Source: Candidatus Babeliales bacterium (GTDB lineage: Bacteria > Babelota > Babeliae > Babelales > JANWKD01). Taken from it: a DNA stretch of 64,000 bases. The position numbers and the translations under genes are program-made. Shown in pieces: positions 28,411-52,856 of the stretch. Under the pieces are notes generated by a model. It was not told the DNA's origin. It saw nothing but the letters and a program-made list of their open reading frames with translations, and did no database searches. Where the stretch lies: positions 448,001 to 512,000 of the forward strand of contig OY969622.1 in the NCBI GenBank assembly GCA_963701665.1. Direction: 5' to 3'. How positions within the stretch are numbered: position 1 is the first letter of the stretch; each line of letters begins with the position of its first letter.

Positions 28411-28473
28411 GTCATTTCCTTCGGAAATGCCTGGCAGGCCATCATACTTCGGTAGTATGGACGTGTCTTCGCT
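28411..28473 (+). repeat. Two hairpin units abutting the tRNA-His CCA (divergent CTTCG family)
   Basis: CCA|GTCATTTCCTTCGGAAATGCCTGGCAGG|CCA followed by CATACTTCGGTAGTATGGACGTGTCTTCGC; shares GTC...GCCTGGC..GCCA with elements at 50586 and 51029. Confidence 0.6.
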
Positions 28474-44562: not shown

Positions 44563-45867
44563 ATGATAGAGGATCTTCTAATGATATGGTGTTGGCTTCT
44601 TTTTTCATGGTGTGCATCTGGACTTTTGGCCATGGAGAATAAAAAACCAGTCAAGAAGCTGACTACGTTAAAAAAAACTTGTATACGAAGTCTAGTTAAA
44701 GAGAATTCTTTTTTGGCAAAAGAAATATTAAGTTCAGGAAAACTTCCTGCTGAAGTTCGATTGCTTTTAGGATGTAAGATGCTCAAGAAAGGCTCTTTTG
44801 AAAATGCAACGGAAGTTATGTCATTATTTGATTCTTGCTTTTTTCCACATTTATTCCTGAACGTATTGACAATAGGCAACACTGCTCGTCGCCAAGAGAA
44901 AACTTTATGGTATGGGATAGAAATGAGAAATATAGCGCAAGAGCGCGGTGATCGTCATCTTAAACTATATTTGGATGATATGTTCAATTTTGCTCGTCGT
45001 ACAGAACATTTCATAAAAGCTGATCGTTCTATACCATCGATTATTATTCAGAGACAGTTATTATCGCGCGCGATTGTTGATATGGTCTCAATAGTTCCGG
45101 TTAGAATTTTATGTCAATATGAGACTCCTGATTTTTGGCTTGATGGTTATCTTGAACGGCCTATGAAATATGGCTATTTCAGCTCTTTCTTATCCACGTA
45201 TAACGATAAGCTACGAGAAGAGGAGGTTTGCTCATATGCAAAGCGCTATAACCTTCCATATACTTCAGAAAAAGACAAAAAACAGGTGAAGAAGCTGGTA
45301 GCGCTATCAAAAAGAAATAAAGAAATTTTAGTAGGACTACATAAATTTATAGTCCTTGGTTTTGAGCCCTTATATAATAAGTATCCTACGATTTGTAGTG
45401 TTATTCGTTATTCTCTCAATAGAATGAGAGAAACGCTTGGTCGAAATAATTGGAGTTTTGATTGCGGCTATGCGCAATTTAAATTAGAACTCGATAGAAA
45501 AGAATATGAAGTTGAAAATAGAAAATACAAAAATGAAATGTGGGCATTTTATGCGTTGCATCCGCAGAGAAATAATATATCTTACATACAACAATTCATA
45601 AGTAATGAGAGATACTGTTACCATGTTCCCTTATTTAATCAGATGTTGAATGAAAAAGAAGGCTTTTATCGCAGTATTTTGAAATTGCTATGTATGTACA
45701 GAAAAGATGAATTTAATAGTTGGAAAAGAAATATTGCTGAGACATTGCAGATGCAAGAAGATGAAGTTGAACAAACCTTATTAAATGATACCTATTATAA
45801 TAAAAGTACAGTCTTACATACTTTGTGGACAAAACGCGTGAACACTTTACGTATGCCTGGTGATTAG
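44563..45867 (+). CDS. Hypothetical secreted protein (paralog B) with BC-box-like motif
   Basis: LLA|MENKK; TTLKKTCIRSL; shares LHK..LGF.P, YA.FKL, FY..ILKLL with previous ORF. Confidence 0.65.
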   Translation: MIEDLLMIWCWLLFSWCASGLLAMENKKPVKKLTTLKKTCIRSLVKENSFLAKEILSSGKLPAEVRLLLGCKMLKKGSFENATEVMSLFDSCFFPHLFLNVLTIGNTARRQEKTLWYGIEMRNIAQERGDRHLKLYLDDMFNFARRTEHFIKADRSIPSIIIQRQLLSRAIVDMVSIVPVRILCQYETPDFWLDGYLERPMKYGYFSSFLSTYNDKLREEEVCSYAKRYNLPYTSEKDKKQVKKLVALSKRNKEILVGLHKFIVLGFEPLYNKYPTICSVIRYSLNRMRETLGRNNWSFDCGYAQFKLELDRKEYEVENRKYKNEMWAFYALHPQRNNISYIQQFISNERYCYHVPLFNQMLNEKEGFYRSILKLLCMYRKDEFNSWKRNIAETLQMQEDEVEQTLLNDTYYNKSTVLHTLWTKRVNTLRMPGD

Positions 45868-45907
45868 CATACCATGGTAGAAAATTAAATTGTTAAGGAG
45901 ATTAGGT

Positions 45908-46213
45908 ATGAAATATATTTGTTATACGATTATTTTTCTTATAAGTTCTTCATGTTTTGCGTTAGATCTTATCGATGCTGCACGTGATGCTGTTGAGGGT
46001 GCTGTGCAAACAACAGAGGATGCGTTATACGCGCCCAGTAATCCAGTAGAAGGTGCAGCTAATGTAACGAATGATGCATTAGAAACGACGGGCAATGTTG
46101 TGGAAGATCTTGTGGTGCCAAGAAACCGCAGAGGGGTTATTTCATATGAAGAAATGAATGAGCAAGAACTACCCTACATGCCTGAATATGATGAAGCGTA
46201 TATGCCAGAGTAA
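45908..46213 (+). CDS. Small acidic secreted hypothetical protein
   Basis: Signal peptide MKYICY..CFA; internal VEGA..T.DAL repeat. Confidence 0.6.
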   Translation: MKYICYTIIFLISSSCFALDLIDAARDAVEGAVQTTEDALYAPSNPVEGAANVTNDALETTGNVVEDLVVPRNRRGVISYEEMNEQELPYMPEYDEAYMPE

Positions 46214-46216
46214 ACA

Positions 46217-46384
46217 CGTCATCCCGAGGAACGAAGTGACGTGGGGATCCAGAATTTTAGTAAATTCCTTTAAAGGATTGATTTTACTATCTGGGTTCTA
46301 CTTCGTTAAAACTTCGTAGAACAGGTTGCCAACTCCTTCGAAGCTCGTAGAGCGAAGTAGGTTTGTAATGACAATTTTGTTTTG
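46217..46384 (-). repeat. GTCAT...ATGAC repeat, copy 4 (inverted, with two nested CTTCG hairpins)
   Basis: GTGGGGATCCAGAATTTTAGTAAATTCCTT identical to copy 3; extra segments at 46295-46325 and 46332-46361. Confidence 0.85.
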
Positions 46385-46786
46385 TTAACCCATAAATGCT
46401 GAACATGCCTGTGCACATTTATTGCATGCTTCAATGCAGGCTAAACAATTATCAACACACTGTGAATCGCCCGCTCTGCATTTTTCGACACAACGTTTGC
46501 ACGCATCAATACAATCCTGACATTTTTTGATACACCAATCAGCCTGTTTTTTGCACTGTTCTTCATGACATGTTGCTAAATGTTTGCGTGTGTGTTTAAT
46601 GGCTTCTTGACATGCTTGTATGCACGCGCTGCATTCTTTTATACAGATGCCAATGTGTTCTGCGCACGCGACTTGATCCATTGCGCTGCACATATCAATA
46701 ACTTGTTGGCATGCGTCAATGCATTTTTCGCAACACTCAATACATGAATTACTTGCTGCTTTATGTTCAGAAGAAATATGTTCCAT
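46385..46786 (-). CDS. Cys-rich four-helix-bundle copper-binding protein (Csp/DUF326-like)
   Basis: Repeated C..C...C...C helices (CIECCEKCIDAC, CIEACNKCAQAC). Confidence 0.75.
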   Translation of the reverse strand: MEHISSEHKAASNSCIECCEKCIDACQQVIDMCSAMDQVACAEHIGICIKECSACIQACQEAIKHTRKHLATCHEEQCKKQADWCIKKCQDCIDACKRCVEKCRAGDSQCVDNCLACIEACNKCAQACSAFMG

Positions 46787-46854
46787 TTAAACCCCTTTTT
46801 ATAAACTTAGTTTTTGATAGCGTATCATACTCCATTTTATTACTTCAAGTATGC

Positions 46855-47529
46855 TTATAATGCGCATACTTCGCACTGTTTCTTGAGTAATTCAAGTGCT
46901 TGATTAACGTCATCCACTACGGCGATTAAACTAAAATCTTCTTTTGTTACAATATCATTTTTCAAAAGCGTGTTTTTAACCCAATCAAGAAATGGTTGCC
47001 AGTACATGCTGCCGAATAAAATTATTGGTACGCCCCTCAGGATGTTTATTTGTGCTAATGTTAGCACTTCACCCAGCTCATCGATTGTGCCAAATCCACC
47101 AGGAAAAACAACAAATGCGTTAGAATAATTTACCATGAGCCATTTGCGCACGAAAAAAGTATCAACGATTAATTTTTCTTGTGCACATGAATTGAGCGGT
47201 TGTACTTGTTCAAGCATTTTTACACTAATGCCAATAGATTGAGCTTGTGAATGACTTGTTTTTATCGCATGGGAAGCACCGCAATTTGCGGCTTCCATGA
47301 TGCCAGGGCCGCCACCGGTAATGACTGATATGTTGTGTTCAATTAATAATGCAGCTAAATCATGCGCTTGCGTTTGATAGGGGCTTCTGTGCCAGCGTGA
47401 ACCACCAAAAATCGTTACCACCGGACCTTTTAACATTCTTTTAATACGCCAGATGCCATGCATAAGTTGGTACGCAGCAACTATTACTGCTTTAAAATTT
47501 TCATAATAAAATTTGAATATCTTATTCAT
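46855..47529 (-). CDS. LOG family protein (TIGR00730 Rossmann fold)
   Basis: VTIFGGSR, ITGGGPGIMEAAN, FFVRK, PGGFGTIDE. Confidence 0.92.
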   Translation of the reverse strand: MNKIFKFYYENFKAVIVAAYQLMHGIWRIKRMLKGPVVTIFGGSRWHRSPYQTQAHDLAALLIEHNISVITGGGPGIMEAANCGASHAIKTSHSQAQSIGISVKMLEQVQPLNSCAQEKLIVDTFFVRKWLMVNYSNAFVVFPGGFGTIDELGEVLTLAQINILRGVPIILFGSMYWQPFLDWVKNTLLKNDIVTKEDFSLIAVVDDVNQALELLKKQCEVCAL

Positions 47530-47631
47530 GCATTTTCTCCTTGTTCATCACTGGTAGTTTATTCTGTGGAGATTACAAAAATAAAGAAAATTGTTTTAAG
47601 ACATATTTTTTATTTTTTGTAACTTTACGCT

Positions 47632-48636
47632 ATGCTTAATAAAAAAAGTTTTGCATTTGGAAAATCTATGAGTTATTGGCAAGAAAACATACAAATCGGA
47701 AATCAATCATACCCGCGTTTTATTGGTGGGCCATTAGATGGCATCACCGATTCACCATTTCGAAAGCTCGTGCGCCACTTTTCGCAAAAAGAACTATTGT
47801 TTACGGAAATGCGCCATGTCGCGTGCGTTGCGCATGATAAATCAGGATTGCGCGCGCTTCATTTTTTTCAAAACGAGCGTCCCTTAAATTTTCAAATCGC
47901 AGCCTCAACTGAAAAAGATATTGAAAACGCGTGCGCAAAAATTATGGAAAAAGGTGTTGATCTTGTTGATCTGAATGTCGGGTGTCCTGCAAAAAATGTT
48001 ATTAAATCCGGTTCTGGTTCAGCACTTATGGCGGATCTCCCTCGTTTAAAACAAGTGCTCACGCGCATGAAAGAAACGTTGCGCGTGCCATTTACCGTAA
48101 AAATCCGCGCGGGTTTCAAACAAAAAAACGCGTGCGATGTTGCCAAACTCATCGAAGATTGCGGTGCTGCAGCATTAACGATTCATCCCCGATTGCGTGA
48201 TGAAATGTTTGCCGGTCGTCCTGATTATGCACTCGCTGCCGCAGTCAAAAAATCAATTTCTATTCCAGTAATTTTATCAGGAAATGTGATTAACTGGGCA
48301 ACCGCAAAAATGGCCTATGAACAAACGGGCGTTGATGGCTTTTTAATTGGCCGTGGTTTGTGGAGCAAACCATGGAAATTGCATGAACTTTCGCTCCATT
48401 CTCAAGGATTACCATTTCAGGTCGATTCTAGTACAATATTTTCGTATGCGCGACAACATCTTGAACTGCTTGAAACATATTATGGATCTCATGGTTTATA
48501 TTGTTTTCGAAAACATTTACCTTTCTACTTGCGCGGTGTGCCAGATGCTACTACAATTCGCAATAATTTAGTAATGTCTGATTCATCGGCATATGTTAAG
48601 GAACAGTTGGAGGCTCTCGGTGCTCAACGTTTTTAA
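47632..48636 (+). CDS. tRNA-dihydrouridine synthase (DusB-like)
   Basis: GITDSPFR, DLNVGCP, GSALM, TVKIRAG, IHPR, IGRG, RKH. Confidence 0.9.
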   Translation: MLNKKSFAFGKSMSYWQENIQIGNQSYPRFIGGPLDGITDSPFRKLVRHFSQKELLFTEMRHVACVAHDKSGLRALHFFQNERPLNFQIAASTEKDIENACAKIMEKGVDLVDLNVGCPAKNVIKSGSGSALMADLPRLKQVLTRMKETLRVPFTVKIRAGFKQKNACDVAKLIEDCGAAALTIHPRLRDEMFAGRPDYALAAAVKKSISIPVILSGNVINWATAKMAYEQTGVDGFLIGRGLWSKPWKLHELSLHSQGLPFQVDSSTIFSYARQHLELLETYYGSHGLYCFRKHLPFYLRGVPDATTIRNNLVMSDSSAYVKEQLEALGAQRF

Positions 48637-49444
48637 AGGTAGCTTAACCTCTGGTGTACGCATTCTCATAGTGTGTGCGCTCTTTTTCTTCATGGCACAT
48701 CGACTTTTCTTTTTTAAACCAGGCATTTTAGAAACAGTTTCATCGCTCGTTGTATATCCATTTGTGCGGCTTCAACAACGTATTACCGATCCCATTGCGC
48801 GTTTCATTGAAAATCGGCAAACACGTGCAACGCTAGAAAAAACTATTAAGACGCTGCAGCAAGAAAAAAAGAAACTTCTAGCCGATGTTGTTGCACTGCA
48901 CTCGGCATTGTGGTACGAAAAGAAAACGCGCGCTGTACATACTTTTCTCGAGCGTTATAAGCTTGAACATTGCCCGTGCGTTCAGATTATTATGAAGCAA
49001 AGTAGCCCTTATGAACACTCGTTTTTAATTGATTACGGCTCCATGCATGGCGCAGAAGTTGATATGGTCGCTGTGTACAACAACTGCATTATCGGCAGAG
49101 TTGCTCATGTTTATCCTTATTACAGCAAAGTGATCAGCTGCGCAGATCCCTTATGCAAAATTCCGGTGCAATGCAATAAATCTCGTGCAAAAGGAATTTA
49201 TGAAGGCACCGCATACGAATATGCAGGTGCGTTGCGCTTTGTGAGTCATTTAGAAAACTTAGTTAACGATGAACTAGTCATCTCAAGTGGCGAGGGCGTT
49301 ATTTTCCCAGAAGGACTTGCCGTGGGAAATATAGCATGGTTCGAGCGTGAAGGATTGCAGTATAACGTGGGCGTTAAGCCGCTCGTTTCACTCAACGAGC
49401 TTGAATATTGTTATCTGGTAAAAAAAGGCGTTCAACGCAACTAG
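48593..49444 (+). CDS. mreC: Rod shape-determining protein MreC
   Basis: N-terminal TM plus coiled coil, IDYGS..G, IIGRV, ISSGEGVIFPEGLAVG. Confidence 0.85.
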   Translation: MLRNSWRLSVLNVFKGSLTSGVRILIVCALFFFMAHRLFFFKPGILETVSSLVVYPFVRLQQRITDPIARFIENRQTRATLEKTIKTLQQEKKKLLADVVALHSALWYEKKTRAVHTFLERYKLEHCPCVQIIMKQSSPYEHSFLIDYGSMHGAEVDMVAVYNNCIIGRVAHVYPYYSKVISCADPLCKIPVQCNKSRAKGIYEGTAYEYAGALRFVSHLENLVNDELVISSGEGVIFPEGLAVGNIAWFEREGLQYNVGVKPLVSLNELEYCYLVKKGVQRN

Positions 49445-50361
49445 CTAAAGATCCCTTTTTGTGCGGCACGTGCTTCAAGTATGGTAACCACTTTGTTCAC
49501 GATCACATCAAGCCACGTTGCTTCATCAACATCGGAAAGATAATCGGGCGGTGTTAAAAAGCTTAAAAACCCTCGCTTTTTTTCTGGTTGCACCCATTCA
49601 ATCTCACCCTCGATCATAGCAAGCTCTTTTATTTTATTAACCACATCAGTTGGTGAGCCGATACGATCAATCAATCCGAGGGTTAATGCTTGGCGACCCG
49701 TGTAAACTTTTCCATTGCCCCATTTTTTTACCTGAGCTAAGTCGAGTGCAGGACGGCATTTTACCACATGTTCATTAAAATTTTGGCAAGAATCATCAAC
49801 GATCGTTTGTAAATACGCATTTTGTTCGGGTGTTGTGTTAACAAATGGATCAGTGACAACTTTATAATCACCCGCTTTAATCATGTTATAATGAATATTA
49901 TGTGATTCTAAAAAGTCTTTGAGCTTGAATTGATTAGGCAAATAGGTACCAATACCGCCGATGATGGTTGAAGGTGCGGCGAAAATAAAGGTCGGCGCAG
50001 CAATATAATAGGCGGCAGATGCGCAAATATCGCACGTGCGTGTGACAATTGGTTTTGGATTTTCAAGATGCAAGAGTTCGATTTCACGTGCAATCATTTC
50101 AGCAGCACCCGCTGAACCGCCGGGTGAATCAATCACGAGCAAGATTGCTTTTATTGAACTATCTTCAAAATGTTTTTTTAATGCAGAACAATAATAGGAA
50201 GCATCGGTGATGGTTCCTTTAATGGCGAGCGTACCAACTTTTGTTTTTGGCTCCAAATAATCACTGTACTGTTTTTTAATACTTTTGATCATGAATGGGG
50301 CAAATTGGAGTAATAAAAGTATGAAAAATATATTGCGAAGATAATCAGAAAAAGCTGCCAT
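49441..50361 (-). CDS. sppA: Signal peptide peptidase SppA (S49)
   Basis: IDSPGGS, CASAAYYIA, KAGDYK, GKVYTGRQA..GLID. Confidence 0.92.
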   Translation of the reverse strand: MAAFSDYLRNIFFILLLLQFAPFMIKSIKKQYSDYLEPKTKVGTLAIKGTITDASYYCSALKKHFEDSSIKAILLVIDSPGGSAGAAEMIAREIELLHLENPKPIVTRTCDICASAAYYIAAPTFIFAAPSTIIGGIGTYLPNQFKLKDFLESHNIHYNMIKAGDYKVVTDPFVNTTPEQNAYLQTIVDDSCQNFNEHVVKCRPALDLAQVKKWGNGKVYTGRQALTLGLIDRIGSPTDVVNKIKELAMIEGEIEWVQPEKKRGFLSFLTPPDYLSDVDEATWLDVIVNKVVTILEARAAQKGIFS

Positions 50362-50460
50362 GCAGGTCCTTTGCGAAGATAAATGCTTTTATAATTTTGA
50401 TGATCCTTCTAACCATAGCGCAATTGGCGCATTTTTATAACTATTTTTTTTAAAGTGATT

Positions 50461-50489
50461 TTGACTTTTACGAGCTTTTTCTTTAAAAT
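50461..50489 (+). promoter_or_regulatory. Putative sigma70 promoter of the tRNA cluster
   Basis: TTGACT-17nt-TAAAAT, 20 nt before tRNA-Val. Confidence 0.65.
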
Positions 50490-50509
50490 CTCTTGTGTCC
50501 CAGTTTAAA

Positions 50510-50585
50510 GGGCGGTTAGCTCAGTTGGTAGAGCATCAGTCTTACAAACTGGGGGTCACTGGTTCGAGCCCAGTACCGCCCACCA
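50510..50585 (+). tRNA. tRNA-Val (TAC)
   Basis: GGGCGGT acceptor stem, anticodon loop CTTACAA, encoded CCA. Confidence 0.95.
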
Positions 50586-50637
50586 GTCTTCGTTTATCCG
50601 GGCCTTCAGGCTCGGCAAACTACGCCTGGCTGCGCCA
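50586..50637 (+). repeat. tRNA-linked CTTCG hairpin element, copy a
   Basis: 52 nt GTCTTCGTTTATCCGGGCCTTCAGGCTCGGCAAACTACGCCTGGCTGCGCCA; one mismatch to 51029-51080. Confidence 0.9.
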
Positions 50638-50735
50638 TTTTCTTTAAATGAAAGTATGTATTAGAATTAGTACAACAAGGCCATGGGCAAGATCATATAA
50701 CTGGGTCATCAGTTATAAAGTAATTTGAAATTGAT

Positions 50736-50811
50736 TCCTCGGTAGCTCAGTTGGTAGAGCACACGACTGTTAATCGTTAGGTCGCTGGTTCGAGTCCAGC
50801 CCGAGGAGCCA
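50736..50811 (+). tRNA. tRNA-Asn (GTT)
   Basis: TCCTCGG acceptor stem, anticodon loop CTGTTAA, encoded CCA. Confidence 0.95.
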
Positions 50812-50895
50812 GTCTTCGTTTATCCGGGTCTTCAGGACTCGGCAAACTACGTCCTGACCGGCGTAGCTGAAAGCGAAGAGGGTCTGGCTTCGCCA
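50812..50895 (+). repeat. tRNA-linked CTTCG hairpin element, copy b, with nested inverted element
   Basis: Same ends as copies a and c, plus a 28-nt insert at 50854-50881 flanked by duplicated GTC. Confidence 0.88.
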
Positions 50896-50951
50896 TCTTC
50901 TTTAAGGATCAACTTATAAGAATTTGGTTTTTTCTTTTCTCCACTCTTGTT

Positions 50952-51028
50952 GGAGCTGTAGCTCAGCTGGTTAGAGCGTCCGCCTGTCACGCGGAAGGTC
51001 GTGGGTTCGAGTCCCATCAGCTCCGCCA
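50952..51028 (+). tRNA. tRNA-Asp (GTC)
   Basis: GGAGCTG acceptor stem, anticodon loop CTGTCAC, encoded CCA. Confidence 0.95.
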
Positions 51029-51080
51029 GTCTTCGTTTATCCGGGCCTTCAGGCTCGGCAAACTACGCCTGGCTTCGCCA
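51029..51080 (+). repeat. tRNA-linked CTTCG hairpin element, copy c
   Basis: 52 nt directly after CCA, ends CTTCGCCA. Confidence 0.9.
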
Positions 51081-51106
51081 TTTAGGTGAACAAAATTTGA
51101 TACAAA

Positions 51107-51301
51107 AAACGAAGACTGCCCGGCAGAGCTTATACCAACGAAGAAGTTATTTTTTTCAAAGCAAATAGCGACGACGGGCTGGCACGGCCAGTTAAATGAC
51201 TTTAAATGTAAGTTAATTTTGATTGGCCAATGCGAAGACTGTCCGGCATAGCTTCACGAACGAAGCGAATGGTAATATTCAAGCAACAGCGGCGACGGAC
51301 T
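51107..51301 (-). repeat. Two ~70-nt related elements upstream of the GIY-YIG gene
   Basis: CGAAGACTG(C/T)CCGGCA(G/T)AGCTT...AAGCAA..AGCG(A/G)CGACGG(G/A)CT at 51110 and 51233; CGAAGACTG is the reverse complement of the tRNA-element start CAGTCTTCG. Confidence 0.75.
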
Positions 51302-51329
51302 AACTCTATTCTAAAAGTAATCAAATTCT

Positions 51330-51571
51330 ATGTATTATGTTTATATTCTCAAATCTATAAATTTTCCAACAAAATATATGTTGGCTATACCCTTAATATT
51401 GAATCAAGGTTAGAAACACACAATAATGGTGGTTCTGTTTATACAAAAGAGCATAAACCTTGGGAGTTAATGTTTTATTGTGGTTTTCAAGATAAATTAA
51501 AAGCGATGAATTTTGAAAAATATTTAAAATCACATTCTGGTAGAATTTTTTTACAAAAAAGATTATTATAA
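51330..51571 (+). CDS. Small stand-alone GIY-YIG nuclease (1-nt frameshift near 51368)
   Basis: ATG at 51330 gives MYYVYILKSINFP; shifted frame gives NKIYVGYTLNIESRLETHNNG..YTKEHKPWEL..AMNFEKYLKSHSGR. Confidence 0.85.
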
Positions 51572-51582
51572 TAATTAATGGA

Positions 51583-51705
51583 CATACTTCGCGTAAAGCT
51601 TCATATGGCAAGCCAGTCTTTTTAATGGATTGATTAAAAAAAGAAAATTAACAGTTTTAATCTGAAATGCGAAGTTTGCTCTTAATAGCCTTGGCGGAGT
51701 AGGAT
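51583..51705. repeat. Degenerate CTTCG hairpins downstream of the GIY-YIG gene (one per strand)
   Basis: CATA-CTTCG-CGTAAAG-CTTCA-TATG-GCAAGCCA on +; CTA-CTCCG-CCAAGG-CTATT...CTTCGCA on -. Confidence 0.55.
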
Positions 51706-51747
51706 AGTTCTTAACCTTAAAATTATATATTTGGAAGAATAAAGTTT

Positions 51748-52203
51748 ATGAAAAAATATTTTCTTGTAGTGTTTTTTGCAATAATCCAACTGAATGCGAT
51801 GGAAGTCACTGAGGATCAGAATGTTGATTCCTTTTTGCCACAAAATGAGCAGGATTTCGAAGAAAAAGAAAGAGCGCTTGCAGCGAGACAAAAAGCACTC
51901 AAAGAATTCTATTTAAGCGAAAAAGAAAAAATTGACCTAGAGCGACAAGTTACTAAAACAGTATTTGAAACAAGACGACGACAAGAAGATGATCGGTATC
52001 TTCGGGACAAGCAAAAGATTGATGAGCAAATTAAAGCCGTTAAAAAAGAAGCAGACGAAGCATTCAATGAAGTTATTGTAATGACTATGCATATGCATCA
52101 TAACATCTTAAGGGCGAGACAAGTACCATTTCACCTCAGAAAAAAATTAGTGGTTGAACGTATCTTAGATAATATTGTCGAGTATCATTGCAAAGATTTG
52201 TAA
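51748..52203 (+). CDS. Hypothetical secreted coiled-coil protein
   Basis: Signal peptide LNA|MEVT; charged helix. Confidence 0.65.
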   Translation: MKKYFLVVFFAIIQLNAMEVTEDQNVDSFLPQNEQDFEEKERALAARQKALKEFYLSEKEKIDLERQVTKTVFETRRRQEDDRYLRDKQKIDEQIKAVKKEADEAFNEVIVMTMHMHHNILRARQVPFHLRKKLVVERILDNIVEYHCKDL

Positions 52204-52280
52204 ATAGTATTTTGCAAATTAAAAATAAATAATTTTAGAACACAAATTCTATATAGTCATTTTTTTTAAGATTTATACTT

Positions 52281-52856
52281 ATGAAAAACATTCTTCTTCC
52301 AATATTTTTAATTTTTACTTCTTCTAATGCTTTTTTTATAGAAGCTAGTTTCTTGCAATCCATAGAAAATTATAAAAACGCATATAATGAACTCGAAAAA
52401 CATATGGATCAAATAAGTCCTGGCTTTATTTGGCATATATGTAAAACCAAAGCATCATATGATAGCTTAACGGTATATAAAGAGGCCCAAGGGGATTTTC
52501 GCAATGCTATTCTTATAAATGCTTTAGGAGATGGTTTTATTTTGGGTGGTTTAGCAGCATGTTGTAATAGAATATTAAATGGCAAAATACTGAATAAAAA
52601 AATAATTTTATCCACCATTGTATGTATCATCGGCATGGCTTATTATAAAAACTATAAAATTGGTGAAATTCCATATTTTGATAACGATTTAAAAAGACAT
52701 GCGAATGAAGAAATTTTCTCGATTAATCTTGCACTACCGTTGTTTTCTTCTTTTGTAGGATATCTCGGAATGGAATATACTTTAATAAAAATTGCAGATA
52801 TTTTGAAAAGTTCAAGCTTGTCCAAAAAACAAGATGAAAATGCCGTTTTATCTTGA
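52281..52856 (+). CDS. Hypothetical membrane protein
   Basis: Signal-like N-terminus, hydrophobic segments. Confidence 0.6.
   Translation: MKNILLPIFLIFTSSNAFFIEASFLQSIENYKNAYNELEKHMDQISPGFIWHICKTKASYDSLTVYKEAQGDFRNAILINALGDGFILGGLAACCNRILNGKILNKKIILSTIVCIIGMAYYKNYKIGEIPYFDNDLKRHANEEIFSINLALPLFSSFVGYLGMEYTLIKIADILKSSSLSKKQDENAVLS

Follow-up and report, generated by a model that had tools for sequence, protein, structure and literature searches.

The window is the whole 64,000-nucleotide stretch of DNA that was analyzed, and positions given without a contig name refer to it. Three tRNA genes, encoding tRNA-Val(TAC) (50510..50585), tRNA-Asn(GTT) (50736..50811), and tRNA-Asp(GTC) (50952..51028), lie on the plus strand, and each is followed on the same strand by a hairpin element, here termed E. 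The preliminary description placed the same 52-nt hairpin at zero distance from all three CCA ends. The zero distance holds in three of three cases, but near-identity over 52 nt applies only to tRNA-Val and tRNA-Asp. The elements of these two genes belong to the GT subtype and occupy 50586..50637, from the base after the tRNA-Val CCA to the terminal TGGC-N3-GCCA, and 51029..51080, respectively. The element at tRNA-Asn contains a nested extra hairpin and is 84 nt long (50812..50895). The TGG of the element at tRNA-Val can pair with the CCA of the tRNA. The two inverted relatives announced at 51110 and 51233 are present on the minus strand: one partner, E', at 51110..51190, consisting of the inverted copy itself (51110-51179, GCGAAGACTG...GGGC) and a TGGC-N-GCCA tail, and a second at 51232..51300. 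Downstream of them, the plus strand carries the gene of about 80 codons (51330..51571) that had been recognized as a single-domain GIY-YIG nuclease gene, an assignment supported by Pfam (PF01541, E value of 3.4e-15). The gene has a frameshift near 51366-51376, which looks real, since two contigs from other runs span the site with no gap; activity, if any, would have to be supplied by the three intact paralogues of the genome.

Two degenerate copies on opposite strands follow the gene, as previously noted: an older element of the TA subtype (51583..51615, plus strand) and a degenerate inverted partner of this subtype (51669..51705, minus strand). This downstream pair is better read as an older element displaced from tRNA-Asp than as a flank that belongs to the gene. 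Element E, a spacer, the two inverted copies, and the nuclease gene together form a 556-bp cassette on the plus strand (51027..51582), the ends of which are ambiguous by 2 nt (CA). A sigma-70-like promoter consensus (10/12 match, consensus only) is located upstream of the tRNA cluster at 50461..50489 on the plus strand; six such sites were found compared to 3.4 in shuffles. This promoter would drive the nuclease gene as well as the tRNA cluster. An open reading frame (ORF) of 151 aa (51748-52203), which matched no Pfam family above the cutoff, lies between the displaced element and an ORF at 52281 and is absent at the orthologous position in a genome of the same genus (G001). An Rfam scan of 45500-52500 returned only tRNAs above the gathering score. 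Elsewhere in the window, a variant element was seen at the CCA of tRNA-His (28411..28441, plus strand) and none at tRNA-Pro, in agreement with the preliminary description. The relative reported at 46.3 kb is a real copy (46301-46316), but it belongs to a second, tRNA-independent class of CTTCG hairpins and is nested in a composite repeat of the Ssn/SRM type (GTCAT...CCAG; 46218..46360, listed without a strand).

Comparison of the copies revealed a unit that opens with tRNA-CCA and continues with hairpin E, an AT-rich spacer, the inverted partner E', and an optional nuclease gene on the strand of the tRNA; gene-less copies form the majority of units. The consensus reads RCCA-XX-CTWCG-stem-loop-CTWCG-X'X'-YGGC-N2-4-GCCA, followed by a spacer and by GCGWAG-X'X'-TG-YCC..CGWAG-stem-CGWAG..GGRC. 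In 87 distinct metagenomic copies, the outer pair is Watson-Crick in 76 (shuffle mean, 23) and the inner pair in 79 (shuffle mean, 44.7), statistics that ignore kinship, and all four pair types are used at XX/X'X'. A partner E' was found with a strict pattern for only 36 of the 122 E copies, and in 35 of these 36 dyads, its dinucleotide complements that of its own E (shuffle mean, 7.8). The invariant motif is CGWAG on both arms, on the strand opposite the tRNA. On this antisense strand, 26 of the 37 triloops are C-GNA-G and 9 of the 10 tetraloops are C-GNNA-G, which match the stable DNA mini-hairpins GCGNAGC/GCGNNAGC described in PMC13037366. A putative structure in single-stranded DNA, formed by the template strand, is favored by the loop sequences. 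The mismatches in the stems, counted on the sense strand, comprise 13 G-T and 4 A-C, an excess that would favor the sense strand and speaks against the template-strand reading. Folding with ViennaRNA gave single hairpins modestly better than shuffles (z of -1.6 to -2.6), and degenerate and inverted copies folded no better than chance. Pre-tRNA-Asp, folded as RNA, is predicted to pair its CCA with the TGG of the element (z of -3.3). No fixed or simple target-site duplication was found at the right end, where the base after GGRC is not constant. At four loci (L239, L240, L262, and L287), the first hairpin at the CCA lacks CTWCG; these variant trailers, for example, CATTT...AAATG as at tRNA-His in the window, keep the CCA/TGG closure or a partner copy.

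The source genome (G000; 1.34 Mb, 37% GC) carries element E at 0 nt from the CCA of 21 of its 37 tRNA/tmRNA genes, in two main subtypes. On the basis of this count and of the presence of the element in other phyla, an origin of the three copies in the window by local duplication only was rejected. No element is present at 13 of the 37 genes, three island-displaced cases being counted apart. In these three cases, an orphan E copy stands behind a 6-nt copy of the end of tRNA-Glu, tRNA-Arg-TCT, or tRNA-Arg-CCT, 4.3, 7.6, or 13 kb away across an island (positions 224436-228777, 350791-358382, and 646277-659364 of contig C1 of the source genome), and the sequence is read as a trailer displaced by island integration. 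Displacement by the islands affects the hairpin in all three cases and the nuclease gene in two; by inspection, two islands have a similar left end and a clear serine-recombinase-like ORF. All four short GIY-YIG paralogues, three of them intact (224035-224274, 350395-350634, and 645313-645552 of contig C1), sit behind an E that is anchored to a tRNA or displaced from one. A relaxed scan detected 95 CTWCG hairpins genome-wide, compared to 0, 3, and 5 in three block shuffles; 33 of the 95 lie within 400 nt of a tRNA and 62 do not. The hairpins away from tRNAs, which constitute the second class, mostly form inverted pairs, and several are nested in Ssn-type repeats. The genome also encodes four other small GIY-YIG proteins of about 95 aa (166594-166812, 261534-261749, 955314-955520, and 974643-974852 of contig C1), referred to here as Ssn-like. 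Their genes are far from tRNAs and lie beside GTCAT...CCAG-type repeats resembling the NTS consensus, which are inverted on both sides of at least two of the four genes. Nested CTTCG hairpin pairs are present in many of these repeats. The two repeat systems, CTWCG hairpins and Ssn-type repeats, thus mix in the source genome.

The nuclease comprises 80 aa and is modeled as a minimal GIY-YIG fold (pLDDT of 96.6). The catalytic-type residues Y17, G19, R27, H31, and E63 are invariant in 25 sequences. One word-limited search yielded 342 relatives at an E value of 1e-10 or below, annotated only as "putative endonuclease," and no NCBIfam family scored above its cutoff for the nuclease. The nearest solved structures by sequence are UPF0213 and Slx1-like proteins (PDB 1zg2 and 1ywl; E values of 3.9e-6 and 3.2e-4). 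Identity to the four Ssn-like proteins of the source genome is 31 to 35% (E values of 4e-5 to 0.58). In a tree of 76 proteins, which has few columns and 45 of 73 branches unresolved, a long branch (SH-aLRT of 100) lies between the nuclease clade and the Ssn-like proteins, internal branches being poorly resolved.

Empty orthologous tRNA sites, which had been named as a check, were found in relatives. One 310-nt contig of a close relative (run X4, depth of 2.6) lacks exactly 51027-51582 at the CCA of tRNA-Asp: sequence corresponding to 50832-51026 (1 difference) is joined to 51583-51650 (5 differences, 1 gap) with a 2-nt CA overlap. The cassette is unchanged in other contigs of the study to which run X4 belongs. 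In the cassette-free allele, the TA-subtype element (51583..51615 in the window) stands directly on the tRNA-Asp CCA, and the same subtype follows tRNA-Asp in genome G004. The cassette was therefore most likely inserted at the CCA, displacing the TA-subtype element; we infer this polarity, insertion rather than deletion, from G004 only. In the same-genus genome, tRNA-Asp is followed by one decayed element and then by the orthologue of the ORF at 52281, with no gene between them. Thirty sppA loci were fetched, and the Val-Asn(-Asp) cluster was present in 14. Of these 14 orthologous clusters, three lack the element at every CCA and several others are filled in part, and one and the same tRNA carries different hairpin subtypes in different genomes. 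Only G000 and G004 showed the nuclease gene in the 1.5 kb fetched. In the same-genus genome, the cluster has the opposite orientation with respect to sppA (L276/L306). Truncated older elements follow the stop codon of the gene at 9 of 71 loci (2 of the 9 being weak) but in 0 of 194 control windows. Their left edges are ragged and begin a few bases after the CCA, as expected if DNA were cut near the hairpin foot and repaired with microhomology. At five loci (L011, L026, L267, L270, and L272), direct repeats of the tRNA 3' part bracket the nuclease gene; one of them, L270, holds a tandem array of five genes with hairpins inserted into tRNA-like copies.

Co-occurrence of the hairpin with this GIY-YIG subfamily, the lack of which had been named as a refuting observation, was seen across 121 genomes of the phylum: both gene and hairpin occur in 67, the gene only in 7, the element only in 11, and neither in 36 (odds ratio of 31, Fisher P value of 3e-14, kinship ignored). 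The hairpin pattern matched 78 of the 121 genomes and its reversed control 1 of 121. Among the 78, the 11 without the gene include two with 8 and 10 copies and other GIY-YIG subfamilies only. Starting from the gene, a same-strand tRNA or tmRNA was found at most 600 nt upstream for 20 of 27 homologues within the order and for 30 of 36 homologues in GTDB from at least eight phyla; an opposite-strand tRNA/tmRNA within this distance was seen for none of these 27 and 36. The upstream genes represent 13 tRNA types and tmRNA, and the GTDB groups include Alphaproteobacteria, Verrucomicrobiota, Acidobacteriota, Bacteroidota, Ignavibacteriota, CPR, and others. An estimated 13,000 metagenomic stretches match the hairpin pattern. 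The inner stem is present in 99 of 120 sampled matches, and 66 of the 90 stemmed matches with at least 80 nt upstream (73%) lie at a tRNA/tmRNA end, compared to 3 of 19 stemless and 0 of 80 viral matches. Because ACCA was part of the pattern, some of the tRNA bias is built in; this requirement favors tRNA ends but cannot account for the 73%. The gene was present in the fetched flank of 13 of 99 metagenome loci (flanks of only 300 nt for 40 loci), in 12 of the 13 at 68 to 246 nt downstream on the same strand. Carriage by phages or plasmids was rejected: tblastn of the nuclease against 50,697 phage and 72,556 plasmid records gave no match, and the 81 viral pattern matches had neither tRNA nor gene. 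The nuclease is encoded on four contigs of the viral collection, possibly in host flanks.

The family is a real and widespread form of the GIY-YIG/hairpin kind that seems not to have been described before; the openly available literature yielded no account of such a tRNA-anchored family, although the supplements of PMC11893778 might list such genes. The broader statement that no system of this kind has been characterized was too strong, as Ssn nucleases with SRM hairpins, the closest known system, are characterized in the text of PMC11893778, albeit as another subfamily that is not tRNA linked. There, SsnA (cd10448; Chenal et al. 2025) is described as binding ssDNA and cutting it next to the cognate hairpin, on only one of the strands, and as acting neither on RNA nor on dsDNA; its authors suggested a mobile origin (PMC11893778). 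Both systems link a small single-domain GIY-YIG gene to a cognate, oriented, multicopy hairpin repeat with GNA-type loops, and the nuclease studied here is likewise a single-domain GIY-YIG protein of fewer than 150 aa. However, it forms a separate clade (80 versus approximately 95 aa) and lies outside the Ssn clade as delimited by similarity to SsnA (E value below 1e-10) or by cd10448, the Ssn-like proteins of the genome, identified by NTS-like flanks, serving as proxy. The element has no CGTC tag but has a CTWCG/CTWCG internal loop, is anchored to tRNA CCA ends (the word "tRNA" occurs 0 times in the main text of PMC11893778), and is found for the most part upstream of the gene, arranged as an inverted dyad rather than as one repeat per side. 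Without a GTCA/CGTC tag, it is unmatched by the published SRM pattern (HGTCWY...RNCYNB), which also missed the Ssn-like flanks and gave a single match genome-wide.

With RAYT/REP, REPIN, and BIME systems, as they are presented in PMC2817692, PMC3116915, and PMC3733652, the family shares chromosomal, gene-less inverted palindrome pairs that correlate with and outnumber the enzyme gene and are not found on plasmids or phages. In contrast to them, the enzyme is a PF01541 protein rather than an HUH/Y1 transposase, a GTAG/CGTC tag is absent, the position is tRNA specific, and copies number tens, not hundreds. Prokaryotic Slx1-like/UPF0213 stand-alone GIY-YIG proteins are the closest solved structures and have the same minimal fold, but the description in PMC1564403, where Slx1 is structure specific with extra domains, includes no linkage to repeats or tRNA 3' ends. 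The E. coli TRIP repeats were rejected as a tRNA-linked relative, since they are not tRNA linked according to PMC10888264. By analogy, the family would work like Ssn/SRM; it is organized like RAYT/REPIN, and by protein it appears to belong to neither. A third small GIY-YIG subfamily (L029, L323, and L324) is flanked by its own inverted repeats (GTTCGCCCTGAG...TCGAAGGG) and is not tRNA linked. The phylum is thus suggested to hold at least three nuclease/hairpin pairs.

Integrative islands that target tRNA genes and free-standing GIY-YIG homing endonucleases such as T4 SegB also use tRNA loci, with nuclease-triggered copying by host recombination. The present family differs in having no integrase or extra DNA-binding domain, usually no duplicated tRNA end, which was seen only at a few other loci, and a predominance of gene-less hairpins; the 556-bp cassette holds the nuclease only and has a 2-nt junction overlap.

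We consider it reasonably probable that the repeat family at tRNA/tmRNA CCA ends travels with the 80-residue GIY-YIG nuclease and is spread by its nicking of ssDNA at the hairpin foot. Hairpin and nuclease gene likely form a selfish mobile element together, with tRNA ends as the landing site; that the nuclease spreads the hairpins is inferred from sequence. The hairpin would fold in ssDNA, most likely on the tRNA template strand, with CGWAG/CGWAG forming sheared G-A pairs and GNA/GNNA mini-hairpin loops. The nuclease may bind it as SsnA binds its own repeat and would cut beside the hairpin, at or a few bases after the CCA; cutting of ssDNA at the CTWCG hairpin in the manner of SsnA is the simplest reading of the clade by analogy. 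GIY-YIG enzymes hydrolyze DNA and perform no strand transfer, so host recombination would do the copying. Drawing on another tRNA end, it would copy the dyad, either together with the gene or alone, by means of CCA/TGG pairing and 2 to 7 nt of microhomology, and older elements would be pushed downstream by new copies. The tRNA stays intact and would lend its promoter to the nuclease gene, and the TGGC-N-GCCA tail may provide an alternative fold that frees the CCA for processing. Speaking against this proposal, a nuclease that cuts its own element attacks occupied sites, not empty ones, and the proposal does not account for the first insertion at a naive tRNA.

Other readings share part of this evidence. 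The nuclease could be a domesticated guard that cuts incoming or replicating hairpin-bearing ssDNA and limits recombination or island integration at tRNA ends, the spread being old or secondary. It would resemble SsnA, which is described as lowering transformation with NTS-bearing DNA in Neisseria (PMC11893778), and would suit the role of tRNA 3' ends as integration hot spots, the displacement of three elements here by islands, and the failure to find gene and element on plasmids or phages, with viral matches not tRNA linked. We nevertheless regard it as rather unlikely, since islands did integrate at element-bearing tRNAs and since patchy presence, several paralogues per genome, frequent stops, and a changing tRNA address look selfish, not conserved. 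A function at the RNA level, in which the pre-tRNA trailer sequesters the CCA and controls 3' maturation, stability, or read-through into the nuclease gene and the protein acts on RNA, could account for the predicted CCA/TGG pairing in pre-tRNA-Asp, the G-T excess on the sense strand, and the strict same-strand geometry of gene and tRNA. This appears quite improbable given that the element is missing from 13 of 37 tRNA/tmRNA genes and from whole genomes, that, on the non-transcript strand, the conserved loops correspond to GNA mini-hairpins of DNA, and that, in the account in PMC11893778, SsnA does not bind RNA.

Only a slight chance is given to gene conversion or slippage that does not depend on the nuclease and that, acting among tRNA 3' ends of similar sequence, would homogenize trailers with the gene as a passenger. 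Subtypes are indeed homogenized within genomes, the tRNA 3' end is repeated after the gene at L011, L026, L267, and L270, and elements are kept in gene-free genomes; however, this reading leaves unexplained why one protein clade goes with the hairpin across many phyla, why the CTWCG mismatch motif is conserved, and why two other small GIY-YIG subfamilies are paired, in parallel, with inverted repeats of their own. It is highly improbable that another enzyme, an IS200/RAYT-type Y1 transposase, a reverse transcriptase, or an integrase, moves the hairpins. The genome does hold five intact-looking Y1 transposase genes and a broken one, as well as serine-recombinase islands at tRNA ends, but the Y1 genes carry IS200-type ends of their own and lack these hairpins in their flanks, and no match to a reverse transcriptase (PF00078), as a tRNA-primed or Penelope-like retroelement would have, or to DUF559 was found in the source genome, which is 93.6% complete. 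As partners, RAYT, reverse transcriptase, and DUF559 are not supported. The IS200-type Y1 element itself occurs as a triple tandem and at single sites (1253004-1254495, 79824, 216174, and 53104 of contig C1), with one copy broken and one beside an Ssn-type repeat.

If the reading as a nuclease-spread repeat family holds, it may, more tentatively, represent a new class of minimal bacterial mobile element, a possibility to which we give somewhat less than even weight: its sole protein would be an 80-residue hydrolytic GIY-YIG enzyme that recognizes a sheared-GA ssDNA hairpin, reads the universal tRNA CCA through the element's own TGG/GCCA, and homes to nearly every tRNA/tmRNA gene in any bacterium. 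CGTC repeats are described in PMC3733652 as lacking a dedicated transposase, and the role of small GIY-YIG proteins as mobilizers of palindromic repeats, an open suggestion in PMC11893778, becomes directly testable because a target, the CCA, and an empty allele are defined here. A very common family of "putative endonucleases" would gain a substrate and a likely role, and a tRNA trailer that recurs across phyla would be explained. By analogy with SsnA, the family would also offer a putative second group of very small ssDNA nucleases that are sequence specific and have cognate hairpins that can be predicted.
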